64,000 bases of DNA from an uncultured Bdellovibrionales bacterium (GTDB lineage: Bacteria > Bdellovibrionota > UBA1018 > CAIPTA01), in NCBI GenBank assembly GCA_964551325.1, contig CAZKBU010000002.1, forward strand, positions 269,861 to 333,860, written 5' to 3'. Every line of letters begins with the position of its first letter. Position 1 is the first letter of the stretch. The notes beneath the pieces are model-generated. The model worked only from the letters and a program-made list of their open reading frames with translations. It did no database searches and was not told the origin of the DNA. Below are positions 2,356 to 16,506 of this stretch, piece by piece. Both the position numbers and the translations under genes were made by a program.

Positions 2356-2458
2356 TTCATCTAGCGACAACGCCCGCAAAATTCAAGTATCTTATTGATT
2401 TTATTGGTTTTTTATAAAATTGCTCGCCCCAATTTCCAATTCAATTAATTGACTATTT

Positions 2459-3814
2459 ATGTTAAGTATTAAGCCATCTATGGTTCATTCAGATTTTCTA
2501 AAACCCCGCAGAGATCCAAGTGCAGTTTCGCGCCATATGGCCAAGCTTCTAAAATCACCGGAGATCAAGAGAATGAGGAGCTACGGCGACTTGTTTTCAG
2601 AGTTTCATTTGAAATTCACCACGACCGATCAAGTGCGCGGACGCAACGTAGTGATTAACGGAACTCCAGTGATCAATTTCGGTTCCGCCAACTATCTCGG
2701 ATTGGACTCCCACCCTGCCGTGCTCAATGCCGCTAAGAATTCCCTTACGAAATGGGGGAATCATTCTGGCTGCTCTCGAATATTTTCATCACACAAAAAT
2801 CTTGTGGTTCTGGAGCAAAAGATTGCTGAAATTACCGGCGCCGAAGCCGCAATGGTATGCGTGAACACCTCGCAAACACACCAAGGCGCGATTCCAGCGC
2901 TGTTTGGCAGGAAGGACACCACCCTCTTTCTGGATCGCTATGCCCACACCAGCATGCATCAAGCGGGGCTGATCGCAACCGCAAAAGGAGCCACCTTGGT
3001 TCGCACCGACATCCGCGATCTGCGATCAGTAGAGAACCAACTCAAGCAAGACAATTCCGAGACAAAGGTAATTCTTGTAGATGGTGTCTATAGCATGCAA
3101 GGAACCGTGCCCGACCTTAGAAAACTCCAAGAAGTGTGCACACGCACAAACACCCTGCTCTATATCGACGACGCACACGGGATTGGAATCTACGGAAAAC
3201 GCGGCGGCGGCGTAGTGGAAGCCCAAGGTCTTCACTATAAAAATCTGATTCTCGCCGGAACTCTTCAGAAAGGTCTCGGAGCCTTTGGCGGCTTCATTGC
3301 CGGATGCCAATCCTTAATTGACTTTCTCCGCGCCACGAGTCGTTCCTACATTTTTTCAGGAACCATTCAACCACAGGCCGTAGAAGGAGCCCTTGCGGCT
3401 ATTGCCATCAGTGATTCCGATGAAGGCAGAACCCTTCGCGCAAGACTGAGCGAAAAGTCCCGGCACATCCGCAAAGAACTTCTTAAACTGGGCTTTCAAG
3501 TGACCGACGGCGACTCTCCCATTATTTCTGTTTTGATTGGGCCCGAATTGCGCACACTAATGGCAGGAAGAAAGCTCTTCGACGAGGGGCTTTACATCAA
3601 TTCGGTTCTCTTCCCCGCTACACCTCGGGATGAGGGGCTGCTTAGAATCTCCCTTAATGCCAATCACACGGATGAGCAGATCGCGCACCTCTTGAAATCG
3701 TTTTCTTCTCTGAAAATCTACCTCAATGAATTCTATAAGCCGTGGGGACCGAACCTGATCTATGCAAGACAGATCGTCAGGCGGCAGGCAAAAAAAATTA
3801 GACTGCTCGCCTAG
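2459..3814 (+). CDS. PLP-dependent alpha-oxoamine synthase (serine palmitoyltransferase / BioF / Kbl family); Spt-like
   Basis: 451 aa. 'NFGSANYLGL' substrate loop and 'YIDDAHGIGIYG' PLP region. The Schiff-base lysine context 'SGTLQKGLGAFGG' is diagnostic of the AONS/SPT family. A ~50-aa N-terminal extension resembles bacterial Spt. The AT-rich promoter-like region at 2356-2458 contains TTGACT. Confidence 0.75.
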   Translation: MLSIKPSMVHSDFLKPRRDPSAVSRHMAKLLKSPEIKRMRSYGDLFSEFHLKFTTTDQVRGRNVVINGTPVINFGSANYLGLDSHPAVLNAAKNSLTKWGNHSGCSRIFSSHKNLVVLEQKIAEITGAEAAMVCVNTSQTHQGAIPALFGRKDTTLFLDRYAHTSMHQAGLIATAKGATLVRTDIRDLRSVENQLKQDNSETKVILVDGVYSMQGTVPDLRKLQEVCTRTNTLLYIDDAHGIGIYGKRGGGVVEAQGLHYKNLILAGTLQKGLGAFGGFIAGCQSLIDFLRATSRSYIFSGTIQPQAVEGALAAIAISDSDEGRTLRARLSEKSRHIRKELLKLGFQVTDGDSPIISVLIGPELRTLMAGRKLFDEGLYINSVLFPATPRDEGLLRISLNANHTDEQIAHLLKSFSSLKIYLNEFYKPWGPNLIYARQIVRRQAKKIRLLA

Positions 3815-3820
3815 GTAAAC

Positions 3821-4918
3821 ATGAAACTTTCCTGCACTGAGACGTCTCCTCATGAAACACGCCGGGCGTATCTCGATCTTTGGAAAGTACACAAAAAAGG
3901 ATTCGACTCGTTTTCCTTTCCCGATGTTTTTTTCGAAAAACTGATCACCGGTGATTTCGTATTCCTGCGCAATCACTTCACGCTTAAAACTCTTTGCCTT
4001 ACGCGATCGGAAAAGCCAATTCTCATGGCAACAATTTTCCTGCCGAAAAGACCCGGAGCTTCGCTTGCCAACCTACGCGCTTCGATCGGAGCGTTTGCTT
4101 ACGCTCCCGAAATCCAAGAAGAAGAATCCAGGTATTTTTGGAACTGGGTACAGAATCGATATGCCGAACTAGATCCCATTGGCCCCATGAATGGCCACTA
4201 CTATCTTGGCTTCAGCCTTCCTCCCGATAACGCCGACGGCAAAAAAATCGGTTTTCAAACAGCCGCTCCTCATAGAAATCAGCGTCGTGTTTTTGGTCAC
4301 TTCGAAAGCGTGCCTCCGCTTAGAACTTTCCATTCATTTGAAACACCGCTGAACCAGGCGTTGGTCGAGAAAATCGAGTCAAAGATCGAAACTCCGCCAC
4401 CGGGCATCCGCATTCGACCGTTTCGAGCAACCACCGCCCGCCGGGATCTTGCTGTAATGAATGACCTGGTGAACAAATGTTTTACTGAACATTTTGGCTT
4501 TGTACCTCTCACAGAAGAGGAGAATTGGGACATTTCCCGCTGGTCGATCCCGCTCTTTCGACGCGGCCATTTCCTGTTTATTGAGGACTCCGGAAAGCCG
4601 ATTGGTTTTTGTTTCGGAACCCTAGACTTCAATCAAGTAATGCGAAATGGGAGCGACTTAGGGAACTTAGGAAGAATGCTTCTGCCCGGAACCATTCCCA
4701 GAGCCAGAATGATTCACAAAGGTGTTCTGCCGGAGTACCAGGGCCAAGGCCTTGTGAATCAGGCTCGCCACCGCATTCTTCTCTCTTTCGCCAAGTCCGG
4801 AGTAAAAACAGTTGAAAACTCCTACGTTGACGAAGGCAACGTAAAATCATTGAGTAATGTGCGCTCTACGGGTGCTATCCCCTTGCACAATTTCCATCTG
4901 CACCACCTCGCCAGGTGA
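3821..4918 (+). CDS. Hypothetical protein with C-terminal GNAT-like acyl-CoA N-acyltransferase fold; candidate N-acyltransferase (ceramide-synthase-like?)
   Basis: 365 aa, starting 7 bp after the Spt-like gene so in the same operon. The C-terminal 'KGVLPEYQGQGLVNQARHRILLSFAKSGVKTVENSYVDEGN' resembles the GNAT acyl-CoA-binding motif A/B region. The N-terminal ~230 aa have no motif I recognise. Confidence 0.4.
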   Translation: MKLSCTETSPHETRRAYLDLWKVHKKGFDSFSFPDVFFEKLITGDFVFLRNHFTLKTLCLTRSEKPILMATIFLPKRPGASLANLRASIGAFAYAPEIQEEESRYFWNWVQNRYAELDPIGPMNGHYYLGFSLPPDNADGKKIGFQTAAPHRNQRRVFGHFESVPPLRTFHSFETPLNQALVEKIESKIETPPPGIRIRPFRATTARRDLAVMNDLVNKCFTEHFGFVPLTEEENWDISRWSIPLFRRGHFLFIEDSGKPIGFCFGTLDFNQVMRNGSDLGNLGRMLLPGTIPRARMIHKGVLPEYQGQGLVNQARHRILLSFAKSGVKTVENSYVDEGNVKSLSNVRSTGAIPLHNFHLHHLAR

Positions 4919-5063
4919 CGAGGCCGCACCAGCCCCAGGCATTTTCATGTATCTTCCTGTGCCGTGGGGTGTTATGTTGCCTCCCTTAACTGCTTCTTTT
5001 GAGACCTAGGGCATTGGGCCCAAGAATCCTCCTGAGCGGCTCCCAGCCTTTAGAGGAGGATTT

Positions 5064-5351
5064 ATGGGAAAGAAAATCTACGTCGGCAATCTGAGCTACA
5101 ACACCAACGACAACAGTCTGCAAGAGGCCTTCTCGGCTTACGGCACCGTGGAATCTGCAAAAGTGATCACGGATCGCGACACCGGCCGCAGCAAGGGCTT
5201 TGGTTTCGTGGAAATGTCTTCTGATGCGGAAGCCAGTGCTGCAATCAGCAAGCTCAACGGTCAAGACATCGACGGCCGTGCCGTAAATGTGAGCGAAGCC
5301 AAGCCTATGGCGCCCCGAGAAAATCGCGGATTCAGCCGCAACCGATACTGA
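5064..5351 (+). CDS. RRM-domain RNA-binding protein (glycine/arginine-rich C-terminus)
   Basis: 95 aa. RNP2 'IYVGNL' and RNP1 'KGFGFVEM' motifs. GGAGGA RBS 7 nt upstream. 145-nt 5' leader. Confidence 0.85.
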   Translation: MGKKIYVGNLSYNTNDNSLQEAFSAYGTVESAKVITDRDTGRSKGFGFVEMSSDAEASAAISKLNGQDIDGRAVNVSEAKPMAPRENRGFSRNRY

Positions 5352-5360
5352 GCGTAGCGG

Positions 5361-5606
5361 TTGTCACGAGACGATTTGCTTCAGGTGGAAGGTCGCGTGA
5401 CCATAGCCACCGGTGGAGGCGACTACCATATCCAGTTGGATGGTGGTCCCTCCGTTACCGCTCGGATCGGCGGCAAGATGAAAAAGTTCAAGATCCGCAT
5501 TTTGGTGGGTGATCGGGTAACCGTCGCCCTTTCCCCCTACGACCTTACTCACGGACTCATCGTCCATCGTCATAAGCCTGGCTACATTCCTGGAGGTTCA
5601 TCATGA
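5361..5606 (+). CDS. infA: Translation initiation factor IF-1
   Basis: 81 aa. S1-like fold 'VEGRVT...GGKMKKFKIRILVGDRVTVALSPYDLTHGLIV' aligns with E. coli InfA ([31 protein letters not shown]). Confidence 0.85.
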   Translation: MSRDDLLQVEGRVTIATGGGDYHIQLDGGPSVTARIGGKMKKFKIRILVGDRVTVALSPYDLTHGLIVHRHKPGYIPGGSS

Positions 5607-5785
5607 AAGAAGCCCCTCGTCCGGTTCGCGGCCAGCTACGTTGCAACTCCTGCCGCACCCTTTGCGCCCCGAAACAGGGCGACTGGTTCGTGAGCAAAGG
5701 CTCGAAGGATCAGCAAATTTTTCTCTGCAAAAAGTGCGAGCAGGAAAAGAAGGATGAATTCGAACGGGCGATTCCCATTCGGTAG
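5603..5785 (+). CDS. Small zinc-ribbon protein (CxxC...CxxC), translationally coupled to infA
   Basis: 60 aa. 'CNSCRTLCAP...FLCKKCEQEKK' has two Cys pairs. ATGA overlap with the infA stop. Confidence 0.45.
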   Translation: MKEAPRPVRGQLRCNSCRTLCAPKQGDWFVSKGSKDQQIFLCKKCEQEKKDEFERAIPIR

Positions 5786-5790
5786 TCCGA

Positions 5791-6495
5791 TCAGGCGCGC
5801 CCCGACTTCCAGCCCAGACAAAACTCGCGGATTAAGGCCCGATACTTGGTGGAGTTCAGAAGGTTCATGGGCATGAACTCCAAACCAAATTGCATTCTGC
5901 GAACTAGAACTCCGGCCTGCTCGTCAATTTCTTCCGTCACATGAGCCACCCTTGCGGATAGGTAGTTCAGACGCTCCCCAAAGTTCGTGAGAAGGTCGAA
6001 TTCCATTTTTTGACCGAACACCAGCTCCTGAAGCTCGTCGCCCACATGCTCCAGCAAAAGCCCGCCCAGCGTGAAATTTCGCACGCCCAGAAGAAACTCC
6101 TGCCCTCGAAAGTAGACAACCGCCACCGATGGAACCGGCAAATGATCAGCCTGAGCCGGTAAACGGGGCAATCCTCTTCGCCATGGCGACGGGAGGCCAT
6201 GAAACTCCACGTCCTTACGTATCAGATCCGCAATCCAGGGATCCAAGCGGGTGAACCGAAGATTGAAAACTGTTCCGTCTTTGCCCGACTCCCTCACGAT
6301 CCGGGCCCTGAGCGGGTGTCCACGATACTCCACGTCCACTTCTTGCCCCATCCAAGCCAAAGCCAAGGCGGAACCATCCACACCACGAAGCACGTTTTTT
6401 GCGCCAGCTACCGAAACTAGAGCGTCGACCTCCAGAGCTTCATGCCCCAATTGGACGCGCAAACGGGAACTGGTGAAAATCCTTTTCTCCAGCAT
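5791..6495 (-). CDS. Hypothetical protein, possible PilZ-domain (c-di-GMP-binding) protein
   Basis: The ORF-track entry 5791..6558 begins at a TTG. The first ATG (MLEKRIF...) is at 6495. 'RIFTSSRLRV' and 'DGSALALAW' loosely match the PilZ RxxxR / DxSxxG motifs. Weak call. Confidence 0.3.
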   Translation of the reverse strand: MLEKRIFTSSRLRVQLGHEALEVDALVSVAGAKNVLRGVDGSALALAWMGQEVDVEYRGHPLRARIVRESGKDGTVFNLRFTRLDPWIADLIRKDVEFHGLPSPWRRGLPRLPAQADHLPVPSVAVVYFRGQEFLLGVRNFTLGGLLLEHVGDELQELVFGQKMEFDLLTNFGERLNYLSARVAHVTEEIDEQAGVLVRRMQFGLEFMPMNLLNSTKYRALIREFCLGWKSGRA

Positions 6496-6544
6496 ATGTT
6501 TAATTTTAACCCGCCCCCCTCTCCCGCGCCAACACGGTCCTAAT

Positions 6545-6561
6545 CCCTTGGATTTCAAGGG
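6545..6561. promoter_or_regulatory. Perfect inverted repeat CCCTTG-gattt-CAAGGG in the divergent promoter region between the PilZ-like gene and ddl
   Basis: Read directly: cccttggatttcaaggg, 20 bp upstream of the ddl start codon. Confidence 0.3.
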
Positions 6562-6581
6562 CTTTCTGGTAACCTTTCTCT

Positions 6582-7709
6582 ATGGGAAAGAAGCGCGTCA
6601 TCGTTTTGTATGGGGGTAAGAGCGGCGAACATGAGGTTTCGCTCCAATCGGCCGCATCCGTTATCCGCAACCTCGATAAAAACAAGTTTGATGTAGTTCC
6701 GGTTGGTATCGATAAAGACGGTCGCTGGCACTATCACGACCTCTCTTTGATCGAGAGCCAGAAGGGCAAAGAACTACCCATCTTCAAAAATCAGCCCGAA
6801 GTCACCCTCGTAAACCGCAATGAAGCGGCCCTTGTTCCCATAGGAAATGGAGCTCCAACTCTCCCCCCCCAGGTCGATGTTGTTTTCCCCGTTATGCACG
6901 GCCCCCTCTGCGAAGACGGCACGATTCAAGGCATGATGGAAATCGCCGACGTAGCCTATGTGGGCTCAGGCGTCCTCGGATCCGCGATCGGCATGGACAA
7001 GGATTTGGCCAAACGTTTGGCTCAATTAGCGGGCTGCCCGATTGCCCCCTATGTTTCTCTCAAAAAATCCGACTGGGAGTCGAATCGAGAAGCCATAGTT
7101 GCACGAGCAAGGGGGGCATTCCCTCTCCCCGTGTTTGTGAAACCGGCCAACATGGGCTCCAGTGTGGGGGTACACAAGATTAAGGATTGGAAAGATCTCC
7201 CGCAGGCGCTCCAAGACGCCTTTCAGTACGACGAAAAAGTTTTAGTGGAGAAGGGAATCGATGCCCGCGAAATCGAAGTCGCGGTACTGGAATCCAGCCG
7301 TTCGGGTGAAACTCATCTCACCGGCGTTCCGGGGGAAGTGCGGCCCACTGGATCCCACGATTTCTACTCCTACGAATCAAAGTACCTCGACGAAAACGGC
7401 GCCGAGCTTATTCTCCCCGCCAAACTCACCGACCCTCAGGCCGAAGAATGCCGCGCGCTAGCGGTAAAGATTTTCGATGCGCTGGAACTTTCCGGCATGG
7501 CTCGTGTCGACTTCCTCATGGACAAGCGCACGGGAACTTTTTACTTCAATGAAGTGAATACCATCCCCGGTTTCACTTCGATCAGCATGTACCCAAAGAT
7601 GATGGAAGCCTCGGGAATACCCTACGGCGAACTTCTCACTCGCCTCGTGGATCTCGCCTTGCGACGACACGAGAGACGGAAAGCTCTTCGGCGCGACTTT
7701 AAGAGCTAA
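6582..7709 (+). CDS. ddl: D-alanine--D-alanine ligase
   Basis: 375 aa. 'RVIVLYGGKSGEHEVSLQSA' N-terminus, ATP-grasp core 'REIEVAVLE', C-terminal 'EVNTIPGFTSISMYPKMMEASG'. Confidence 0.9.
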   Translation: MGKKRVIVLYGGKSGEHEVSLQSAASVIRNLDKNKFDVVPVGIDKDGRWHYHDLSLIESQKGKELPIFKNQPEVTLVNRNEAALVPIGNGAPTLPPQVDVVFPVMHGPLCEDGTIQGMMEIADVAYVGSGVLGSAIGMDKDLAKRLAQLAGCPIAPYVSLKKSDWESNREAIVARARGAFPLPVFVKPANMGSSVGVHKIKDWKDLPQALQDAFQYDEKVLVEKGIDAREIEVAVLESSRSGETHLTGVPGEVRPTGSHDFYSYESKYLDENGAELILPAKLTDPQAEECRALAVKIFDALELSGMARVDFLMDKRTGTFYFNEVNTIPGFTSISMYPKMMEASGIPYGELLTRLVDLALRRHERRKALRRDFKS

Positions 7710-8784
7710 GCCGACGAAGAATCGCCCGACGAGCCGGTATTTCGATCCATCGATACACCAGCACCGACACTCCCAGGATCAGTCCCATCACAACAATCGT
7801 AAACAAGATGGGGTCCACCGTGTTCTTACTACGAATCGCGGAGGCCCAGTCGCGCAGTGGAACGTGAAGAATGTAGAGCGCATAGCTCGCTTCTCCGAGA
7901 AGCTCGAGCCAAGGAGGCGCCCGCCCCGGAAGAAAGGCGAGGACCAAAATGAGGGCGGCGAAAAAGGGAGCCAGGAGGATTCCATTAAGCCAAAGGTAGG
8001 GCAGTTCAGGCGCTGCGGCGATTCCCCAGAAAACACCGCCCAGCCCAATGCTACCAATCAGCCAGCTCAATCGCGGGTTTTCCCAGGCCCGAAAAAGCCG
8101 CGCCAGAAAAATACCCATCACAAACTCAGGCAAGTGCGCAATCGGATGGGTTTGCACGAAATCCGACCACCACCCCAGGCTGTCGGGCTTATTTTGATTC
8201 AGTCCGTTCCACATCATGGCCGCAGGTTCCACCCAAAACGTGGCTCCTTGAATTAGCCAACCGATGCCCAAAGAAAAAGCTAGCCCGATGAGAGCCCCTC
8301 GAAGGGAACTTCCCACGCGAAGTCGTAAAAAAAACGGAAAGAGCAGGTAGAAAAACATTTCCGCATGAATCGACCATGCCGGATAGTTCACAATGCCGGC
8401 ATCGGGAAACCAGGATCCCAAAAAACCGAGATGCACGGCGAGGTATCCCCAAATCTTCGCCCCCTCACCCGTTCGGGCGAGTGCCATCCAGGCGGGAACG
8501 GCCCCTAAAGCGAGCCCGATCCAAAATGCCGGCACGATGCGGGCAAAACGTTTCACCAGAAACTCTCCCCAGCCCACGGACAGCTGGCGAGAATAGGTGT
8601 GCTCCAAAACAAAACCAGACAGCACAAAGAAAAAGGGAACGAAAATATATCCCGTTCTCACAAGGTGCAAAAACAACTCCGGCACATCTTGATCAAAAGA
8701 AGGGTTCCAACGGGGAATCAAGTGGAAGCAAAACACTCCGAAGGCGGCAAAGAATCGAGCGGCCGTGAGATAGGAAAGCTTCAT
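7699..8784 (-). CDS. Acyltransferase family 3 (OafA/YrhL-like membrane O-acyltransferase)
   Basis: 361 aa, polytopic. N-terminal 'FFAAFGVFCFHL', 10+ hydrophobic segments and a conserved His-rich first TM typical of Acyl_transf_3. Confidence 0.7.
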   Translation of the reverse strand: MKLSYLTAARFFAAFGVFCFHLIPRWNPSFDQDVPELFLHLVRTGYIFVPFFFVLSGFVLEHTYSRQLSVGWGEFLVKRFARIVPAFWIGLALGAVPAWMALARTGEGAKIWGYLAVHLGFLGSWFPDAGIVNYPAWSIHAEMFFYLLFPFFLRLRVGSSLRGALIGLAFSLGIGWLIQGATFWVEPAAMMWNGLNQNKPDSLGWWSDFVQTHPIAHLPEFVMGIFLARLFRAWENPRLSWLIGSIGLGGVFWGIAAAPELPYLWLNGILLAPFFAALILVLAFLPGRAPPWLELLGEASYALYILHVPLRDWASAIRSKNTVDPILFTIVVMGLILGVSVLVYRWIEIPARRAILRRLSS

Positions 8785-8811
8785 CTAACCTAAAGGATAG
8801 ATTCCAGAGGC

Positions 8812-10320
8812 CTAACGAGGAAGCGCCTTTTTCAGAATCTTCCCGCTTTCTCCTTTAGGAAGCTCCTTTAGCTGTTCCCAGTGCTTGGGAATCTTATAGC
8901 GAGCCAAGCGACCATCGCAGTAGCGCAAAAGCTCTTCTGGCGTGATGGGGCCTTGGTCCAGGGAAGAATAGAATGCCTTGCCCACTTCACCCCATTTGGA
9001 ATCCGCTACGCCAACCACGGCTACTTCGTGAATTCGAGGATAAGCCCGAAGGACCTGCTCAATCTCCGCCGGATACACGTTCTCAGCACCGGAAATGAAC
9101 ATGTCCTTCTTTCTTCCTACAACGTAAAAATAGCCTTCATTATCGCGCTTCACGAGGTCACCCGTGTGGAACCACCCGTCGCGAATCGAATCACGAGTGG
9201 CCGCTTCGTTTTTCCAGTAGCCGGGCGTACAAGCGGGCCCTCGCAAGCAAAGCTCGCCTACCTGACCGGAACCGAAAAGCTCGAGTCCATCGTTGTCGAC
9301 GATCTTCACGTCGATATAGAAGTTAGGGAATCCAATAGAACCGATCTTCCGAATCGCGTCTTCTTCATTCAAAGAAAATACATTGGGCCCGAATTCAGTG
9401 AGTCCATAGCCCTGCCGCACAGGAACACCCTTTTCTCCCCATACACGGATCAGTTCCACGGGCATTGGCTCTCCGCCCACAATCGCATAACGAACCGATG
9501 GAAGCTCCACTTCATGGAAAGCCGGTGTTCTCACCATCATGTCCATCATCGTGGGAACACCAAAAAGAACCGTGACCTTCTCCGAAGCCGCCAGACGCAT
9601 CACTCGATCCGCGTCAAATTTTTTCAGCATCAATACTCTAGCGCCGTGATGAAGGAACGGCGTCGTCAACACGTTCCATCCGGACGTATGAAACATCGGA
9701 TGAAAGATAATGGTCGCGTCCCGGGGAGTGATATTGAGGCGCAATCCGGTGTTGACTGAATTCCAGAACAGCATCTGATTCGTAATCAGAGCCCCCTTCG
9801 GCGCTCCCGTGGTGCCCGATGTATAGAGCACCATCACCGGAGACTCAAAGTCGCCGACCACAGGCAGATCGCCGCTCATCACTGAATCCGTGAAGAGAAC
9901 CGCCGCTAAAGAGTTCGGGCCTTCGAACGGAAGCGTTTGCTCTGGCTTGTGATTCAACTCTCTAACGATCCCTTCGTAAGGTTGCTGATAGAACAGAACC
10001 TTGGATTCACTGTCGGAGAGCACATGCTCCACTTCCCTGGGAGAGAGACGATAATTGATGGGAACCAGCATCGCCCCAAGTCTCTGAAGAGCGAAAAACA
10101 AAAACACCATTTCCGGCTCGTTCATAGCCAAGGTGGCCACGCGATCGCCGCGCCCAACCTTAAACCGATTTCGCAGCTCTATGGCCAGGTGACTCGATCG
10201 CTCAAAAAGCTCTAGATAGGTAAAAGCACGGCCGGAGTCGAGACACTGGAGCGCGACGTTTTTTGGCGAATACATCGCCCAACGTTTCAACCAATCCAGT
10301 TCGATCGCGGATTCTTTCAT
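8812..10320 (-). CDS. AMP-dependent synthetase/ligase (long-chain fatty acid--CoA / acyl-ACP ligase family)
   Basis: 502 aa. AMP-binding motif 'LYTSGTTGAPKGA' and downstream 'GYGLTE' and 'WFHTGDL' motifs. Confidence 0.85.
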   Translation of the reverse strand: MKESAIELDWLKRWAMYSPKNVALQCLDSGRAFTYLELFERSSHLAIELRNRFKVGRGDRVATLAMNEPEMVFLFFALQRLGAMLVPINYRLSPREVEHVLSDSESKVLFYQQPYEGIVRELNHKPEQTLPFEGPNSLAAVLFTDSVMSGDLPVVGDFESPVMVLYTSGTTGAPKGALITNQMLFWNSVNTGLRLNITPRDATIIFHPMFHTSGWNVLTTPFLHHGARVLMLKKFDADRVMRLAASEKVTVLFGVPTMMDMMVRTPAFHEVELPSVRYAIVGGEPMPVELIRVWGEKGVPVRQGYGLTEFGPNVFSLNEEDAIRKIGSIGFPNFYIDVKIVDNDGLELFGSGQVGELCLRGPACTPGYWKNEAATRDSIRDGWFHTGDLVKRDNEGYFYVVGRKKDMFISGAENVYPAEIEQVLRAYPRIHEVAVVGVADSKWGEVGKAFYSSLDQGPITPEELLRYCDGRLARYKIPKHWEQLKELPKGESGKILKKALPR

Positions 10321-10327
10321 AAATTCG

Positions 10328-11338
10328 CTAGGTGTCGTAGGCCCACTCGAGGGCTACGGAAGCCATAGCTACTCCGCCGCCAGAACCCACGAGTACGAGT
10401 AGATCACCCTTTTTCAGTGCTTTTTTACTTACGGCGTCGGCCAGAGCCATCGGGATACAAGCGGATCCGGTATACCCGTATCGATCCATGATGTTCCAGC
10501 TCTTCTCACGGGGGAGATCCATGTTGTCCATAGTGGCCTCTATCGTGCCGATATTGATCTGGGTGAGAAAGAACTGACTTACGTCTTCCTTCTTCCGGTT
10601 GGCACGATCCAAAAGAGCATTGATCAGTCGCGGCCAACCCTCGGAGTTGGTTTCGAGCGGAATCTTCTTCGCAAAGCGAAGCTGATGATCCTTCCGATCA
10701 ATCACCTCGTGGGTAATAGGCATGAAGGTGCCCCCCGCATAAATGCCCATGTAGTCGTGATACTGCCCTTCGGTATGAAGCTTGGAGGCGAGAATTCCTC
10801 CCTTTTCTCCTGGAGCCGCCCGCTTCAAGACCACTGCTCCCGCACCGTCGGCAAAGAGGCTCGTGATCTTGTAGTCGTCCCAGTTTAGATGCTTGCTCAT
10901 CCCGTAAGCGCCCACCACCACCACCGTGCGATAGCGTTCATCGGCCTGCATGTACTTTGAGCCCATATCGAGCGCCGTAACAAATCCGGCGCACGCGGTG
11001 TTCACGTCGAAACAGCCTGCGTTCTTGAACCCCATCCTGTGCTGCACCACCGATGCGGTGGACGGCGAGATATAGTCGGGAGTGTCGGTGGCCACGATTA
11101 AAAGATCCACATCGTCGGCGGTAACTTTCCCGTTCTTCAGCGCCTCTTCAACAGCAGGAACGATCAAATCACTCGTGATCTGAGTGGGGGCCATAAAGTG
11201 ACGCTGGCGAATATTCCGCTTTTCGACCAAAAACTGTTCTATGGACGGATTCTTATAAAGTTCGGCGAAGTAAGAGTTGGGAACTACCCGCTCTGGGACA
11301 TACATTCCGGTTCCTGCAATAATAACTCTATGCGTCAT
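10328..11338 (-). CDS. 3-oxoacyl-ACP synthase III (KAS III / FabH-like)
   Basis: Trimmed to 'MTHRVIIAGTGMYVP', which has a perfect AGGAGG RBS (the ORF-track start is 11407). Thiolase-fold motifs 'GCFDVNTACAGF' (active-site Cys) and 'GSGGGVAMASVALEW' C-terminus. Confidence 0.8.
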   Translation of the reverse strand: MTHRVIIAGTGMYVPERVVPNSYFAELYKNPSIEQFLVEKRNIRQRHFMAPTQITSDLIVPAVEEALKNGKVTADDVDLLIVATDTPDYISPSTASVVQHRMGFKNAGCFDVNTACAGFVTALDMGSKYMQADERYRTVVVVGAYGMSKHLNWDDYKITSLFADGAGAVVLKRAAPGEKGGILASKLHTEGQYHDYMGIYAGGTFMPITHEVIDRKDHQLRFAKKIPLETNSEGWPRLINALLDRANRKKEDVSQFFLTQINIGTIEATMDNMDLPREKSWNIMDRYGYTGSACIPMALADAVSKKALKKGDLLVLVGSGGGVAMASVALEWAYDT

Positions 11339-11405
11339 AACCCCTCCTAAAGGAATCCGAACGGTTCCTTGACCATCATCGAAAGCCACGGGTATACCAC
11401 CCCGC

Positions 11406-12152
11406 ATGAATATTCAATACACGTTCACCGGCAAGACAGCGATCATAACGGGCGGCGCCCAAGGCATCGGATTTGAAATCGCAAAACAGTTCCTTACGGC
11501 AGGGGCCAAAGTCGCCATCTGGGACTGGTCGGATGAGGCGCTGAGCCAAGCTCGGCAAGAGCTCTCCACCTTTGGCGACCGACTCACCACCACAAAGGTG
11601 GACGTCAGCAACATGGCCTCCTGTGTTGATGCCGCTAACCATCTTCCTGGAAGCGTGGATGTTCTTGTGAATAATGCGGGCATCACCCGCGACAAGAGTT
11701 TTAAAAAAATGACGGCCGACGAATGGCAGTCCGTAATCGACGTGAACCTTACCGGACTTTTCAACGTTACGAAGAGTCTCTTTGAAAAGTTCAATCCTCA
11801 AAGCACGGGAAAACGCATCATAAATATCTCGAGCGTCGTAGGACTCTACGGCAATTTTGGCCAAACCAATTATGCTGCAGCAAAGGCCGGCGTTATCGGC
11901 ATGACGAAAACTTGGGCACGTGAAATGGCTCGTTCGGGTTTCACCGTGAATGCCGTGGCACCTGGGTTCATCGAAACCAAGATGACCGCAGCGATGCCCG
12001 CCGAAGTGCTCAAGAGCATGGCCGAGAAGGTGCCTGCCCAGCGTCTTGGGAAAACCCAAGACATCGCCAATGCTGTTTTGTTCCTCGCTTCCGACTCCGC
12101 TTCCTACGTGAACGGAACAGTGATCAGCGTCGACGGTGGTCTCGTTCTCTGA
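11406..12152 (+). CDS. 3-oxoacyl-ACP reductase-like short-chain dehydrogenase (FabG family)
   Basis: 248 aa. 'TGGAQGIGFEIAK' Rossmann motif, 'NNAGITRD', catalytic 'YAAAKAG' (YxxxK). Confidence 0.8.
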   Translation: MNIQYTFTGKTAIITGGAQGIGFEIAKQFLTAGAKVAIWDWSDEALSQARQELSTFGDRLTTTKVDVSNMASCVDAANHLPGSVDVLVNNAGITRDKSFKKMTADEWQSVIDVNLTGLFNVTKSLFEKFNPQSTGKRIINISSVVGLYGNFGQTNYAAAKAGVIGMTKTWAREMARSGFTVNAVAPGFIETKMTAAMPAEVLKSMAEKVPAQRLGKTQDIANAVLFLASDSASYVNGTVISVDGGLVL

Positions 12153-12182
12153 TCCCAAACTGAATGAACCGAGGGGGTTCTC

Positions 12183-13175
12183 ATGCGCGTGATGTTCCAA
12201 GTGTTACTTGCAGGCCTACTCACCGCTCTGTTTGCTCAGGCAGCGGAGAGCAAAGGCGAGTTTGTAACCGTTGGACGCGGACAACAGGTTTGGGTGGAGT
12301 GGACGGAGCCTAAGCAAGGAAAGCCGGTACTTGTTCTCCTCAACGGCCTCACCTACTCCACTAAGAACTGGAACGATCTCAGTCGAGCTCTTGAGCCATC
12401 CGGATTTGGCATTCTTCGATACGACATGAAGGGCATGGGCAAGACAATGCTGAACGGCCCATTGCCGGTGAACTACTCCGTCACCTGGCAAGATCAGGTG
12501 AAAGTTCTCAAAAGTCTTTTAGGTAAGCTGAAATTGAAAAGGGTGCACCTTGTTGGCCTCAGCTACGGGGGTGGAATTGCCGCTGGCTTCTCCAATGCGT
12601 ATCCGGAAATGGTCGCCTCCACCATTCTGCTCGCCCCTTTCACGGAACCACTTCCCTCTATGGACTCCTGGATCCGCCAGCAAGTGGCCCTCACCCGGAT
12701 TGCCCAGCCTTGGAATCCTTCCACCGACGATGAACTCTACGATTTCTTTCTGAAGAACTTCATCTATTCCACCTACCCGGCAGCCGAACCGAACGTGCTC
12801 GAAAACCCCTGGAAGCTGGAAGCCATCTTTCGCATGGTGCAAGGTATTCGGAAGCTCGACGCGAAGAAGGAAACAGAGAACCTGAAACCTCGATCTGTCT
12901 ACCTCGTGGTAGCCAAAGAGGATCAGTATATTCCTCGTGGCGTAATGGACGCCTACTGGGAAGCAGTTCCGAGCCGGGCTCGCGCATCGCGCGTGATCGC
13001 CTCTTGGACGGAGCACAAGATTCCCGAAGCCGTACCACAATTTACGGCCGGCCTCATTCGTCTCTTAGTGGAGGGCGATCCAGCCCTGAGAAAAGGTGAC
13101 ACTTTCGACGCCTCCACGTTTCGAGGCGAAATCTGGAATGAGCGAGCCAAATTCAAAGTGCCAGGAGTGCGATAG
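12183..13175 (+). CDS. Secreted alpha/beta-fold hydrolase
   Basis: 330 aa. Signal peptide 'MRVMFQVLLAGLLTALFAQA'. Nucleophile elbow 'GLSYGG' (GxSxG). Confidence 0.7.
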   Translation: MRVMFQVLLAGLLTALFAQAAESKGEFVTVGRGQQVWVEWTEPKQGKPVLVLLNGLTYSTKNWNDLSRALEPSGFGILRYDMKGMGKTMLNGPLPVNYSVTWQDQVKVLKSLLGKLKLKRVHLVGLSYGGGIAAGFSNAYPEMVASTILLAPFTEPLPSMDSWIRQQVALTRIAQPWNPSTDDELYDFFLKNFIYSTYPAAEPNVLENPWKLEAIFRMVQGIRKLDAKKETENLKPRSVYLVVAKEDQYIPRGVMDAYWEAVPSRARASRVIASWTEHKIPEAVPQFTAGLIRLLVEGDPALRKGDTFDASTFRGEIWNERAKFKVPGVR

Positions 13176-13945
13176 TGATTAAGCTCAACATTCGGATTGT
13201 TCCCCAGCTCCTCCCCTTCCCCACCGTATTTCTCCCGGGAAACCTGGCGGCAAATCTTTGGTGGGAACCAGCTGTGTCGGAGTGGCAGAAGCGTGGCGGC
13301 GGAAAGCATCCGGCGATTTTAATCGAATGGCGTGGACTCGGCGGTAGCCAAGACGGAATGGATCGTCCATTTAATGTAGAGTCACTCGCCGAGGACGTAG
13401 TGGAGAACATTTGTGCCTTAGCTTTGGGTCCAGTGAACCTAGTGGGACACTCTACGGGCGGGATCATCGGTGCTGCCGCAATGGCGAATGCGCCAGAAGT
13501 TTTTCACCGTGCCATTCTCCTCGACTCCGTGGCAGCCACAGGGATTCAATTTGGTCCCGAAATGTATGCCGCTTTCGAAGCGATGAGCAAAGATGAAAAC
13601 CTATGTGCAACGGTCATTCTGTCGACGATGCACGAAGCGAATTTAAGTAACGAACTTCGGACCGGAATTGCGAAAGCCGCCTTCCATGTGCACCCGAAAA
13701 TCTGGCGCGCCGTTCCCGACATGCTGAACTCCCTGGATCTCAGGTCGGAACTCCGAGGCGTGAAGGCGCCCACACTCGTTCTTCATGGCGAACATGATGT
13801 GCTTCTTCCGATGGAAGGGTCCGAGGAACTTGCCAGAATTATTCCTGGAGCGCGTTTTTATAAAATTCCGGGCCGCGGGCATTGCACCAATGTGGAGGCG
13901 CCCGGCCTCTTCGTAGACTTGGCAAACCACCATCTCTTTGGATAA
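13175..13945 (+). CDS. Alpha/beta-fold hydrolase
   Basis: 256 aa. Nucleophile elbow 'GHSTGG', C-terminal 'HGEHD...PGRGHC' acid/His region. Start overlaps the previous stop. Confidence 0.7.
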   Translation: MIKLNIRIVPQLLPFPTVFLPGNLAANLWWEPAVSEWQKRGGGKHPAILIEWRGLGGSQDGMDRPFNVESLAEDVVENICALALGPVNLVGHSTGGIIGAAAMANAPEVFHRAILLDSVAATGIQFGPEMYAAFEAMSKDENLCATVILSTMHEANLSNELRTGIAKAAFHVHPKIWRAVPDMLNSLDLRSELRGVKAPTLVLHGEHDVLLPMEGSEELARIIPGARFYKIPGRGHCTNVEAPGLFVDLANHHLFG

Positions 13946-13957
13946 CGCACCGCTAGA

Positions 13958-13985
13958 AGTTCCATTTCGGAACTGTTTCGTTTTT
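13958..13985 (+). terminator. Candidate Rho-independent terminator after the hydrolase operon
   Basis: AGTTCC-atttc-GGAACT hairpin followed by gtttcgttttt. Short stem, moderate call. Confidence 0.4.
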
Positions 13986-14324: not shown

Positions 14325-14684
14325 TTACCAGCGGGTAGCCAATGCCCACAAAACACCGCCCAATATAGCGGTGACCAGAAAAACAGCTCCCATCATCACC
14401 CAAAATTCCCCACTGCGGAGAAACTTCCCAGGATCAAACTTCTCGCGAAGCCTCCCCTGCAGGAACTGCCGAGCCAGCGCCGTTAGCTCCGCAGCATACT
14501 CCACGGGCGGAGGGATATCAGGGATCCACCGATCCACCCGAGCCATGTCGTTTCGATAGGCAGCCGCACGAAGGCGCATTTCTTCGCTGGAAGCCAAAAG
14601 CGCCGCTATCTGGCCGTTCAGCTCGCCACTCTCAGAGGCGCCTTCCAAAAAATCCTGTAGCTCCACTCGCGAAGGAAGTCTCAA
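14325..14684 (-). CDS. Putative anti-sigma factor (single C-terminal TM helix)
   Basis: 119 aa. 4-bp overlap with the upstream sigma-like gene. C-terminal TM 'FWVMMGAVFLVTAILGGVLWALA'. No conserved catalytic motif. Confidence 0.4.
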   Translation of the reverse strand: MRLPSRVELQDFLEGASESGELNGQIAALLASSEEMRLRAAAYRNDMARVDRWIPDIPPPVEYAAELTALARQFLQGRLREKFDPGKFLRSGEFWVMMGAVFLVTAILGGVLWALATRW

Positions 14685-15124
14685 AACTCCTCCACTTCCG
14701 CCGGCGCACGCCCCAACAATTGTGTGCGCCCCTCCAGCAAGATGTCTCGCACCTGGCTCTCGCTCACGCCTAAAACGAATCCAATCGACGAAGCGGAAAA
14801 GCGTCTCTTATGTCTCAAAAAAAGTGCGGCTCTCAACTCCGGGCGGAGCTGAAAAAAAATACCCTCTCCAACAGGAATGCTCTGATCTCGATGGCGCCAT
14901 TCTTCCCAGAGCGCGCGGTGAAATTTTGCCCGGCTCTCCGAGTGTCGCGGAAAACCGTCGTCCCAGTTGAACCATCCTTGCTCCCATCCCTCCAAGAGGG
15001 CATGCGAAACAGATGCTCCCGAGGCATCTCCGAGCACGGCACTAAAACCAAAAAGGTCTTCAGCGGCGTCAGCCAAAGCTTCCGCTGTTTTTTGCAGTTC
15101 ACGACTGAGAAATGGATCCGCCAT
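14681..15124 (-). CDS. Sigma-70 region-4 HTH protein (atypical/truncated ECF-like sigma factor)
   Basis: 147 aa. 'LRPELRAALFLRHKRRFSASSIGFVLGVSESQVRDIL' is a clear sigma-70 region 4.2 HTH. No canonical region 2 is evident. Confidence 0.5.
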   Translation of the reverse strand: MADPFLSRELQKTAEALADAAEDLFGFSAVLGDASGASVSHALLEGWEQGWFNWDDGFPRHSESRAKFHRALWEEWRHRDQSIPVGEGIFFQLRPELRAALFLRHKRRFSASSIGFVLGVSESQVRDILLEGRTQLLGRAPAEVEEF

Positions 15125-16037
15125 CGATTTCCCAGTCTTCCAAAGATCTCAGAAATGGGGAAGGCATAGGGCACCAAAGACGCCCCCCATCCTTCCAAGA
15201 AACAGACTCCGCATGCAAAAGATGGTGGGGATAATCAGGGGAAACACCGGTAGCCCCCCCATAGGTTTGATCGCCCACTAGAGGATGCCCCATGGCCGCA
15301 GAGGTCACCCGCACCACATGACGAGCGCCATCTCTCGTTTTGATCCGGACCAAAGTGGCCTTCGCCGTAGAAACCAAGACTTCGAACGACAGCGCTACCG
15401 TTTCCGTGTAATTAGTTTGCACGACTTTTTTCTTCCCGCCGGCACCATCGGCCAAATGAAAGATCACCTCGCCCCGAGGCGGGTGAAACTCTCCCGTCAC
15501 CAGCGCCAGATAAGTTTTTTCCATTTCACGTGCTTGGATCAATTCTCGGAAAGAAGCTCGGATCGGACGATTCAGAGCCACCAAAACTCCCCCGCTCGTG
15601 GAAAAGTCGAGTCGCTGCAAGAGCCCTCCCTCCAAGAGCGGAGGGTCCGCGAGTCGACAAAACTCAGCCGGGTCCATCACATTTCTAGTTGCTAACTCAC
15701 GAGACACACGAGAGGCCAGCGACTCAAACTCCCAGGGAAATTGTCCTACCGAATGCACTCCCGCCGGCTTTTCCACGAACCACCAGCCTTCGCCCTCGGC
15801 CAAAACCCGCACTCCGGCGGAAGCAGGCAATAACCCGTGCACTGGACCGGGGAAGTCCACTTTAATAACGGTACCAGGTCCAACTTCGTCGCCCGGGCTC
15901 AGACGACGCTCGGAGCGAATTCGTCCCTCCTGAAACAGCCAATCCCAACTGGATCGACTCAACCACTCGGAAATACCCTCGTTTCGGAGTATCCGATCAC
16001 AACGGCCCGACACTTTTACGTTCACTTCAACGAGCAT
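15099..16037 (-). CDS. RluA-family pseudouridine synthase
   Basis: Trimmed to 'MLVEVNV...' (the ORF-track start is 16190). S4-like N-terminus and catalytic 'LLQRLDFSTSGGVLVALN' (HRLD-x-x-TSG motif) with the conserved Asp. Confidence 0.7.
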   Translation of the reverse strand: MLVEVNVKVSGRCDRILRNEGISEWLSRSSWDWLFQEGRIRSERRLSPGDEVGPGTVIKVDFPGPVHGLLPASAGVRVLAEGEGWWFVEKPAGVHSVGQFPWEFESLASRVSRELATRNVMDPAEFCRLADPPLLEGGLLQRLDFSTSGGVLVALNRPIRASFRELIQAREMEKTYLALVTGEFHPPRGEVIFHLADGAGGKKKVVQTNYTETVALSFEVLVSTAKATLVRIKTRDGARHVVRVTSAAMGHPLVGDQTYGGATGVSPDYPHHLLHAESVSWKDGGRLWCPMPSPFLRSLEDWEIDGGSISQS

Positions 16038-16089
16038 TGTTTTACAAAGCCTCATACGGGGTCGTATAATTTTATACAGGGAAGTTCGC

Positions 16090-16506
16090 ATGGAGGCGAG
16101 CATGGAAAACGTCAATACAGTCAAAAGCGGCCAGCAAAATGAGGCCGATCGCTTAGCCCAGGAACACAGCAAGCGAGTGCGCGATCTCAAAAAAAAGCAG
16201 CAGGAAGAATTCGACTACCTGCAGAGTGAACACGAGCGAAAGATGAAATCGATGGAATCGGCCTACCGGGTGGAACTCTCCTCCCGTGAAGCCGATTTCG
16301 ACCGCAGCCTCGCAGAAGTTCAAGAAAATCACACCGTACGCCTCGATAACACCACAAAAGCCAGCGAAGCACAGCTCGCCCAGGCGCGAGAGGCGTATGC
16401 TCGTCAATTCGACGAACTCCGACTCTCGAACGAGAAAAAAGTAAACAAACTACGCGAGGACCTCACCGAACAGGTGCAGAATCTCGAAAGCAAAGGGAAG
16501 GCCTAA
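16090..16506 (+). CDS. Hypothetical coiled-coil protein
   Basis: 138 aa, highly charged heptad-rich sequence (EEFDYLQSEHERKMKSME...). No motif I recognise. Confidence 0.4.
   Translation: MEASMENVNTVKSGQQNEADRLAQEHSKRVRDLKKKQQEEFDYLQSEHERKMKSMESAYRVELSSREADFDRSLAEVQENHTVRLDNTTKASEAQLAQAREAYARQFDELRLSNEKKVNKLREDLTEQVQNLESKGKA

Follow-up and report, generated by a model that had tools for sequence, protein, structure and literature searches.

A KAS III-fold protein without the His/Asn pair of FabH lies in a conserved, probably catabolic gene module of an uncultured Bdellovibrionales bacterium

The 64-kb stretch of DNA analysed here (the window), from an uncultured Bdellovibrionales bacterium (contig CAZKBU010000002.1, positions 269,861 to 333,860), contains at 7699-13945 a block of six genes with the family names of a lipid pathway: a ketoacyl-acyl carrier protein (ACP) synthase III (KAS III)-fold protein, an AMP-forming acyl-coenzyme A (CoA) ligase, an acyltransferase-3 membrane protein, a FabG-like short-chain dehydrogenase/reductase (SDR) and two alpha/beta hydrolases (Table 1). 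The question raised by this locus is whether such names describe what the genes do together. The original prediction, made from the sequence alone, saw a dedicated pathway that primes, reduces and transfers an unusual acyl chain. All six open reading frames (ORFs) lie where it had placed them, with Pfam families that agree with its labels, and so do the perfect AGGAGG, the 67-bp divergent spacer, the overlapping hydrolase start and the hairpin. As to function, we hold with good confidence that the block is neither a fatty acid synthesis nor a lipid-building cluster, and that five of its genes form a conserved module that looks catabolic. We put at about even the chances that these five, encoding hydrolase 1, hydrolase 2, the SDR, the KAS-like protein and the ligase, act as one functional unit of a widespread CoA-dependent salvage or catabolic module with a thiolase-like KAS step.

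HMMER alignments to solved FabH structures showed that the KAS-like protein keeps the nucleophilic Cys, and that Thr259 replaces His244 and Tyr289 replaces Asn274 of FabH. Together with an Asp in place of Thr81, this gives the signature Asp81-Cys112-Thr244-Tyr274 in E. coli FabH numbering. The Cys-Thr-Tyr combination was present in all 120 of the closest homologues and in all 119 members of a second, distant branch, while 173 of the 179 KAS-like ORFs from all fetched loci had Asp-Cys-Thr-Tyr and three more had Asp-Cys-Asn-Tyr. In KAS III enzymes malonyl decarboxylation depends on His244 and Asn274, which also stabilise the enolate, and because Thr and Tyr replace this pair, decarboxylative condensation by the KAS-like protein is, judged by its residues, very unlikely. 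This leaves little of the FabH-like condensing enzyme that had been proposed. Whether the gene is the organism's only fabH, the refuting condition set with that proposal, thereby loses most of its weight, as a protein with these residues cannot be a canonical FabH; the analysis covered 64 kb of this genome and 10 kb on either side of loci in related genomes.

The family shares with FabH (E. coli FabH; PDB 1hnj, 2ebd and 8vd9) and with BioZ the overall fold, the nucleophilic Cys in its A-C-A-G elbow and the GGG oxyanion loop, and a further Cys nearby (YTGSAC) is conserved within it. Other family-wide changes (Phe87 to Ser/Thr, Phe304 to Ser, Ala216 to Asn and Ile250 to Thr/Ser) are predicted to make the pocket more open and more polar. 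Residues R249, K214 and R151 of FabH are replaced by Gly, Glu and Tyr/Phe, respectively, and we take R249 and K214 to be among the basic residues with which FabH docks ACP; aromatic residues occupy the W32 and R151 positions, which are presumably those that stack on the adenine of CoA. The window protein also fell under the NCBIfam cut-offs for FabH (PRK09352, 239.1 vs 249; TIGR00747, 205.5 vs 292.1), and the family extends to archaea, which to our knowledge lack ACP. When we searched representatives of 1.8 billion proteins, the top ~20 cluster representatives, down to ~37% identity and typically above ~208 bits, were Cys-Thr-Tyr proteins, and nearly all of those scoring lower were canonical Cys-His-Asn proteins, with two Cys-Thr-Tyr representatives at ~186 bits amid them. 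The Cys-Thr-Tyr proteins thus appear to be a largely discrete clade. An AF2 model of the window protein had a plain FabH fold (pLDDT 84), for which Foldseek found in the PDB only canonical FabH, BioZ and PqsD folds (TM 0.8-0.9, 26-30% identity to FabH). No member of the family has been solved among PDB entries, the best match there scoring 158.8 bits against typically more than ~208 for members. Likewise, our literature searches on Bdellovibrio fabH, KAS III enzymes with altered triads, FabH-ligase-SDR-hydrolase clusters and archaeal FabH returned only the CerJ/ChlB3 and Ltp2/Sal precedents discussed below and nothing on the family itself, which is no proof that it is unknown.

Two further kinds of KAS-like gene were seen in the fetched loci. 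A third paralogue type, with Glu-Cys-x-His at the four signature positions (L119:3218-4276, L170:2099-3121 and L171:9057-10139), is found at some metagenome loci a few kb away from the Asp-Cys-Thr-Tyr gene, and might be a heteromeric partner, as in PqsBC. In a Bdellovibrio metagenome-assembled genome (L028, region 2366-7317), a second, diverged Cys-Thr-Tyr gene at 6250-7317 is preceded by a CoA-transferase of the acetyl-CoA-hydrolase family and two alpha/beta hydrolases; a 741-amino-acid protein with no significant Pfam match then follows, and the regular copy lies 3.7 kb further downstream.

A scan of a genome collection with the family alignment gave at least 598 loci related to the KAS-like family, and a metagenome scan gave at least 520 stretches; the Asp-Cys-Thr-Tyr signature was checked in the fetched loci only. 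The best 80 of the at least 598 loci came from Bdellovibrionota (with a complete chromosome of B. bacteriovorus), Ignavibacteria, Bacteroidota (Saprospiraceae, Lewinella, Fulvivirga and Crocinitomicaceae), Calditrichota, Thermochlorobacter, Gemmatimonadales, Marinimicrobia, KSB1 and Balneolaceae. The gene set is clustered far beyond chance, and was met again at about 170 fetched loci that span many phyla. Partners within 7 kb of the KAS-like gene were counted for 70 non-redundant loci that had flanks of 5 kb or more on both sides. A CoA-activating enzyme was present in 68 of them (a ligase, which adjoins the KAS-like gene, in 61 and a CoA-transferase instead in 7), an alpha/beta hydrolase in 62, as a rule encoded on the strand of the KAS-like gene and 650-930 bp upstream of it, an SDR in 59, a MaoC hydratase in 8, often with no SDR nearby, and one or other of SDR and MaoC in 65. 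An importer was found in 48, a regulator in 33 and a canonical thiolase in 11. Homologues of acpP and fabD were found in none of 174 loci, where the KAS-like gene was never beside plsX, fabD or acpP, and tblastn detected no acpP, fabD or second fabH in the window. This is in keeping with the earlier view that the block is not the core fab operon.

Within Bdellovibrionota the divergent layout of the window is the usual form, seen at about 30 loci, and five further loci are colinear, with SDR, hydrolase 1, hydrolase 2, KAS-like protein and ligase encoded in that order on one strand. The two apparent operons of the window are therefore one unit, split by inversion, which bears out the proposal that the two divergent units belong together. 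Furthermore, the same core lies in differing genomic settings on four Bdellovibrionota contigs, so the conservation as a block that had been suggested as a check was indeed found among relatives. What recurs is five genes and not six: a homologue of the acyltransferase-3 of the window was present in none of the 70 loci, and phmmer found it solely in an identical contig (L001). Its gene begins 27 nt downstream of the ligase gene, with which it is probably co-transcribed here, and in a related genome (L002) an unrelated, HGSNAT-type acyltransferase takes the same position after the ligase. The acyltransferase-3 is a local passenger outside the conserved module, and the part in the pathway that had been given to an OafA-type enzyme is not supported.

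In other phyla the core keeps different company. In Ignavibacteria, Bacteroidota, Calditrichota and relatives (e.g. Ignavibacteria L055) the operon comprises a MarR-like regulator, SDR, KAS-like protein, SSF symporter, ligase, lipoprotein, outer-membrane beta-barrel and two hydrolases, and a plasmid of the cultured Cytophagales species Chondrinema litorale carries the same core with a TonB-dependent receptor. The distant Cys-Thr-Tyr branch covers Sulfolobales, Thermofilaceae, Thaumarchaeota, Thermotogae, Chloroflexi, Caldisericia and Spirochaetia. Its neighbours include an esterase, a LivK-type ABC importer, a family-III CoA-transferase, a hydrolase, a regulator, a thiolase and an SDR in Sulfolobales, a TetR-like regulator, a CoA-transferase of the acetyl-CoA-hydrolase family and an ABC importer in Fervidobacterium, TetR, a hydrolase, MaoC and a ligase in Caldilinea, and an SDR, a CoA-transferase, a thiolase-like protein with DUF35, a hydrolase and an ABC importer on a Chloroflexota plasmid. 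Soil-metagenome loci encode a TonB-dependent receptor, a hydrolase, the KAS-like protein, a ligase, a second hydrolase, MaoC and an MFS transporter, and we took their ~1130-amino-acid outer-membrane protein for an Acidobacteria-type receptor, as a candidate label. Porins or TonB-dependent receptors, importers of the SSF, MFS and ABC families, and MarR or TetR regulators are together a signature of nutrient utilisation and not of surface-lipid or secondary-metabolite synthesis, and this set, one instance of it plasmid-borne, therefore speaks against the dedicated biosynthesis of lipids or secondary metabolites that had been envisaged. The module-linked symporter resembles PanF and monocarboxylate carriers, and the CoA-transferases resemble butyryl-CoA:acetate and CaiB-type enzymes. 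The substrate-binding proteins of the ABC importers show only weak similarity to LivK-type proteins from structural genomics, some of which presumably bind aromatic acids, and did not single out a substrate.

At the Fervidobacterium locus (L089:15186-16892), the last of the importer's ABC permease genes encodes a 568-amino-acid fusion with an alpha/beta-hydrolase domain, an arrangement that suggests ester hydrolysis coupled to uptake.

The SDR has the conserved tetrad N114, S143, Y156 and K160. It lacks the pair Arg15 and Thr37 with which E. coli FabG binds NADPH: the Arg15 position is mostly Gln in its orthologues, and Asp40 (codon 11523-11525), at the end of beta-2, is Asp in 67 of 73 cluster-linked orthologues. 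These residues point to an enzyme of the NAD(H) type, and they fit poorly with the FabG-like ketoreductase of a synthetic pathway that had been proposed. The best solved relative was 4nbu (245 bits, vs 194 bits for E. coli FabG), which we take to be an NADH-dependent FabG homologue and which has the same beta-2 Asp; 4nbu and the (R)-specific 3-hydroxyacyl-thioester dehydrogenases are the closest known counterparts of the window SDR. In profile searches it passed two subfamily hidden Markov models (PRK12824, 272.4 vs 269; PRK12826.1-2, 244.8 vs 222) and stayed under the FabG equivalog cut-offs (287.3 vs 296 and 285.5 vs 297.75). An apparent closest match to the (3R)-hydroxyacyl-CoA dehydrogenase of MFE-2 (2et6) was dropped because its score summed two domains (113.5 + 133.0 bits).

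The ligase has the P-loop, C-terminal domain and A10 Lys of acyl-CoA ligases of the ANL superfamily, and reached no specific equivalog. Across 74 orthologues neither the P-loop (T/S-G-T-T-G-x-x-K or T-S/A-G-T-T-G-x-x-K) nor the A10 Lys varies. Its best solved relatives were the feruloyl-/fatty-acyl-CoA synthetases 8wev and 8weu, FadD13 and MenE, with full-length matches to FadD13, MenE and feruloyl-CoA synthetase. Hydrolase 1 has a hydrophobic, signal-like N-terminus and a GLSYG motif, in line with the secreted GxSxG hydrolase of the original prediction; all 25 orthologues have hydrophobic N-termini, Ser127 and His278 are invariant in 25 of 25, and the protein is, from these features, probably a periplasmic esterase. 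Only Bdellovibrionota have it, and among their loci L006, L012, L017 and L024 lack it; its PDB matches were weak (esterases, MhpC and the polyhydroxybutyrate (PHB) depolymerase 8ynv). Hydrolase 2 is cytoplasmic, with a GHSTG motif and a Ser93-Asp208-His236 triad invariant in 31 of 31 orthologues. The conserved core has this hydrolase, whose gene immediately precedes the KAS-like gene in the colinear loci. The 3-oxoadipate enol-lactonase PcaD is its best characterised relative (NCBIfam, 88.8 bits, under the cut-off; 82 vs 256 bits when set against the PcaD cut-off; PDB 2xua, 1.5e-15), and it is also related to hydrolases of the RsbQ/KAI2 type. Both hydrolases match PHB depolymerases weakly and neither reaches a specific family cut-off.

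FabG-type SDRs and MaoC hydratases are as a rule (R)-specific. Because the neighbourhoods combine importers, regulators and secreted or fused esterases with activation by a ligase or transferase and with an NAD(H)-type SDR or an (R)-specific hydratase, and hold no carrier-protein genes, we favour CoA-dependent utilisation or salvage of an acid derived from an ester or lactone. Release of this carboxylic acid would fall to hydrolase 1 outside the cytoplasm and to hydrolase 2 within it, although hydrolase 2 may alternatively act as a terminal thioesterase. The ligase, of FadD13/MenE type, would turn the acid into its CoA thioester, as the CoA-transferase would in other lineages. The SDR would then interconvert 3-hydroxyacyl-CoA and 3-oxoacyl-CoA, most likely oxidatively, with a MaoC hydratase acting instead or additionally in some lineages; a 3-hydroxyacyl-CoA intermediate is suggested because an SDR or MaoC is near-universal. 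Finally, Cys116 of the KAS-like protein would accept the acyl group in a non-decarboxylative step, most likely thiolase-like cleavage of 3-oxoacyl-CoA by CoA, in which the gained Tyr and Asp could serve as acid and base.

Such cleavage is favoured because most loci are without a canonical thiolase, the arrangement parallels PcaD-PcaIJ-PcaF and atoDAEB, and hydrolase 2 has PcaD as its nearest characterised relative; taken by itself, a thiolase-like step performed by the KAS-like protein is something we put forward tentatively. The module has in common with the beta-ketoadipate pathway (PcaD, PcaIJ, PcaF) and the ato operon (AtoDA, AtoE, AtoB) the logic of a lactone or ester hydrolase followed by CoA activation and C-C thiolysis, with a dedicated transporter, and differs from them in having a KAS III-fold protein in the place of the thiolase, plus an SDR or MaoC step. 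We infer the direction of the pathway, the 3-hydroxy/3-oxo intermediate, the thiolase-like chemistry and the substrate. Candidate substrates are (R)-3-hydroxyalkanoates from polyesters or lipids, other hydroxy- or keto-acids and, in some branches, aromatic acids, and for a predator the polyesters or (R)-3-hydroxy fatty acids of its prey are attractive, if speculative. Carnitine and hydroxycinnamate catabolism were considered as specific pathways, with these compounds as substrates, and set aside, being attractive for some branches and unsupported for Bdellovibrionota. In a wider and doubtful proposal, the Asp-Cys-Thr-Tyr proteins would be a new functional class in the thiolase superfamily, acting on CoA esters by C-C cleavage without decarboxylation or by transfer from ester to thioester, at the core of an unrecognised salvage pathway for ester-bound 3-hydroxy/3-oxo acids (polyester or lipid debris) in bacteria and archaea.

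Several points weigh against this account. The family is without a characterised member, so we infer every catalytic assignment made here. A canonical thiolase is encoded at 11 of the 70 loci, including those of Sulfolobales and Chloroflexota, so the case for the KAS-like protein as the thiolase is weaker. A dehydrogenase is missing from the surroundings of some MaoC-type loci, and a 3-oxo intermediate is therefore not guaranteed, with retro-aldol cleavage or ester-to-thioester transfer as possible alternatives. In Bdellovibrionota, the window included, the block lacks an importer gene, an NAD(H)-type SDR can run in either direction, and the similarities of the hydrolases to enol-lactonase and PHB depolymerase are far under the family cut-offs. 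Moreover, both here and in one related genome the gene after the ligase encodes a membrane acyltransferase, and the acyl-CoA product could there be consumed rather than degraded.

Within the same catabolic module, the KAS-like protein could instead be an acyltransferase that uses CoA to convert oxygen esters into thioesters and back, which we regard as unlikely. It might, for example, cleave CoA-activated oligo-esters (3-hydroxybutyrate dimers or oligomers) thiolytically into monomer CoA esters, or run an O-acylation of the CerJ/ChlB type in reverse, with the SDR or MaoC then processing (R)-3-hydroxyacyl-CoA. CerJ, ChlB3, ChlB6 and DpsC are a precedent for acyl transfer on a KAS III fold, having lost decarboxylative Claisen condensation and kept the acyl-enzyme nucleophile (PMC9573744). 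Such a role is consistent with the invariant Cys, with hydrolases as near-universal partners, one of them secreted, and with TonB-dependent receptors and porins, which suggest oligomer-sized substrates; the weak PHB depolymerase matches of both hydrolases point the same way, and the 11 loci with a canonical thiolase leave space for a non-thiolase role. However, the known acyltransferases use Cys-His-Asp or Ser-His-His triads and not Cys-Thr-Tyr (PMC9573744), and those of the CerJ/ChlB3 type work with ACPs or glycoside acceptors inside polyketide clusters, whereas the KAS-like family, which is not specifically related to them in sequence, sits beside CoA ligases or transferases and importers, with no carrier-protein or polyketide synthase genes in the neighbourhoods examined. 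Polyester and phasin genes were likewise not nearby, and the hydrolase similarities are generic.

We consider it quite improbable that the KAS-like protein of this module is a retro-aldolase or lyase acting on 3-hydroxyacyl-CoA as Ltp2 and Sal do, together with MaoC where present, and that the SDR acts on the released carbonyl product. Ltp2 and Sal, which take part in steroid side-chain cleavage, work on CoA thioesters with a thiolase-superfamily scaffold whose catalytic residues have become Tyr with or without Cys (Tyr/Tyr in Ltp2, Tyr/Cys in Sal), and perform retro-aldol cleavage beside MaoC hydratases in a catabolic operon that includes a CoA ligase (PMC12329534). The Tyr in place of Asn, the conserved Cys of YTGSAC and the eight loci with a MaoC partner are reminiscent of these enzymes. 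Yet the Cys of the nucleophilic elbow is invariant in the KAS-like family, which points to covalent acyl-enzyme chemistry, and a 2019 study reportedly found Ltp2 to be without a nucleophilic Cys. Furthermore, Ltp2 and Sal belong to another, SCP-x-like clade that needs a bound DUF35 partner, whereas the KAS-like family is of KAS III type, and the module of the window has an SDR and not MaoC.

The biosynthetic pathway first envisaged, in which the KAS III would prime, the ligase activate, FabG reduce and the acyltransferase-3 transfer an unusual acyl chain to a surface glycan or lipid, or in which an alkyl metabolite would be made, now seems highly improbable to us. The family names fit it, as does the short gap between ligase and acyltransferase-3 genes with a different acyltransferase of AT3/HGSNAT type following the ligase in L002, and a lineage-specific use of the acyl-CoA with the acyltransferase may exist in this genome. 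Against it stand the missing His/Asn pair for decarboxylative condensation, the NAD(H)-type SDR, the absence of acpP, fabD and any other carrier protein from all 174 loci and of the acyltransferase-3 from all 70 with sufficient flanks, the importers, regulators and plasmid location seen elsewhere, and the occurrence of the family in archaea.

An Ole-like head-to-head pathway, with non-decarboxylative condensation of two acyl-CoAs, reduction by the SDR, beta-lactone formation by the AMP-ligase homologue and decarboxylation by a hydrolase to give olefins or beta-lactones, is scarcely credible. The four superfamilies of OleA, OleB, OleC and OleD are all present and clustered, but none of the proteins of the module is orthologous to its Ole counterpart: OleA structures aligned with residues 51-143 of the KAS-like protein only (~1e-14), against full-length alignments of FabH structures (1e-45), and the ligase groups with the CoA ligases FadD13 and MenE. 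OleA keeps Cys-His-Asn and a Glu base, and OleD is an extended SDR of the 3-beta-HSD type, whereas the KAS-like triad differs and the window SDR is of the classical FabG type. One hydrolase is secreted and importers are linked, and a CoA-transferase replaces the ligase in 7 of the 70 loci, an exchange incompatible with a lactone synthetase. Pimelate synthesis of the BioZ type and quinolone logic of the PqsA/PqsD/PqsE type were ruled out, both because the triad is missing and the latter also because importers are present.

The reading that we prefer, a CoA-dependent salvage or catabolic module, bears on how these genes are named. The source annotations that we saw name the KAS-like genes 'ketoacyl-ACP synthase III' or '3-oxoacyl-ACP synthase III', and such labels distort the reconstructed metabolism of predators (Bdellovibrionota), necromass degraders (Ignavibacteria, Saprospiraceae), thermophiles and archaea. 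On the Chondrinema litorale plasmid (L173:9174-10987; NZ_CP111049.1 194431-196244), RefSeq gives fabG with a gene ontology (GO) term for fatty acid biosynthesis next to a ketoacyl-ACP synthase III, which looks like an instance of widespread mis-annotation. If the proposed class is real, it would be a third case, next to the CerJ-type acyltransferases and the Ltp2/Sal aldolases, in which the thiolase scaffold has been repurposed, and would point to a class of substrates that many uncultured heterotrophs import through dedicated porins, TonB-dependent receptors and symporters. Cultured carriers exist in Bdellovibrio bacteriovorus, Chondrinema litorale, Caldilinea aerophila and Fervidobacterium.

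The gene calls on which these comparisons were made are collected in Table 1. An identical 10-kb metagenome contig (L001) received the same six genes from an independent gene call, with a KAS-like protein of 336 amino acids, and this call and the homologues both place the KAS-like start at the ATG at 11338, while the mechanical ORF extends to 11407. By the names of its homologues, the organism belongs to Bdellovibrionota. The AGGAGG lies 4 nt 5' of this ATG (TTTAGGAGGGGTT-ATG), the ligase gene begins 7 nt downstream of the KAS-like gene, and the TAG stop of hydrolase 1 and the GTG start of hydrolase 2 overlap by one base (TAGTG). The sole sigma-70-like match for the plus-strand unit is at 11295-11323, within the KAS-like coding region, and such sites were not enriched. 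Nor were hairpin/T-run sites enriched in the region (14 found vs 10.3 +/- 3.7 in shuffles).

Table 1. Positions in the window of the genes and sites of the six-gene block.
Feature	Position	Strand	Evidence
Acyltransferase-3 membrane protein, 361 aa	7699-8784	-	Pfam Acyl_transf_3, 115.8 bits
AMP-forming acyl-CoA ligase, 502 aa	8812-10320	-	Pfam AMP-binding and AMP-binding_C
KAS III-fold protein, 336 aa	10328-11338	-	Pfam ACP_syn_III and ACP_syn_III_C
Key codons of the KAS III-fold protein	Asp85 11084-11086; Cys116 10991-10993; Thr259 10562-10564; Tyr289 10472-10474	-	
Divergent intergenic spacer, 67 bp	11339-11405	.	Sequence read; AGGAGG before the KAS-like ATG
FabG-like classical SDR, 248 aa	11406-12152	+	Pfam adh_short
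Alpha/beta hydrolase 1, 330 aa	12183-13175	+	Pfam Abhydrolase_1
Alpha/beta hydrolase 2, 256 aa	13175-13945	+	Pfam Abhydrolase_1
Hairpin and T-run, plausible terminator after hydrolase 2	13958-13985	+	AGTTCCATTTCGGAACT then GTTTCGTTTTT; 6-bp stem and T-run at 13958-13974

Across the whole 64-kb window we found no tRNA genes and no Rfam match at the gathering threshold, and the GC skew was negative across almost its entire length. The acyltransferase-3 gene on the minus strand and a D-Ala-D-Ala ligase gene on the plus strand (6582-7709) are convergent and overlap at their 3' ends by 11 bp (7699-7709). On the other side of the block, at 14325-16190, two small minus-strand ORFs of 119 and 147 amino acids adjoin a pseudouridine synthase gene; the L006 counterpart of the 147-amino-acid ORF matches Sigma70_r4 weakly, and the three genes also stand together next to the module in L002 and L006, as what looks like a conserved but unrelated neighbour. 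Finally, at 5064-5606, a gene for an RRM-type RNA-binding protein (95 amino acids) is followed 10 nt on by an 81-amino-acid ORF with a TTG start that resembles IF-1.

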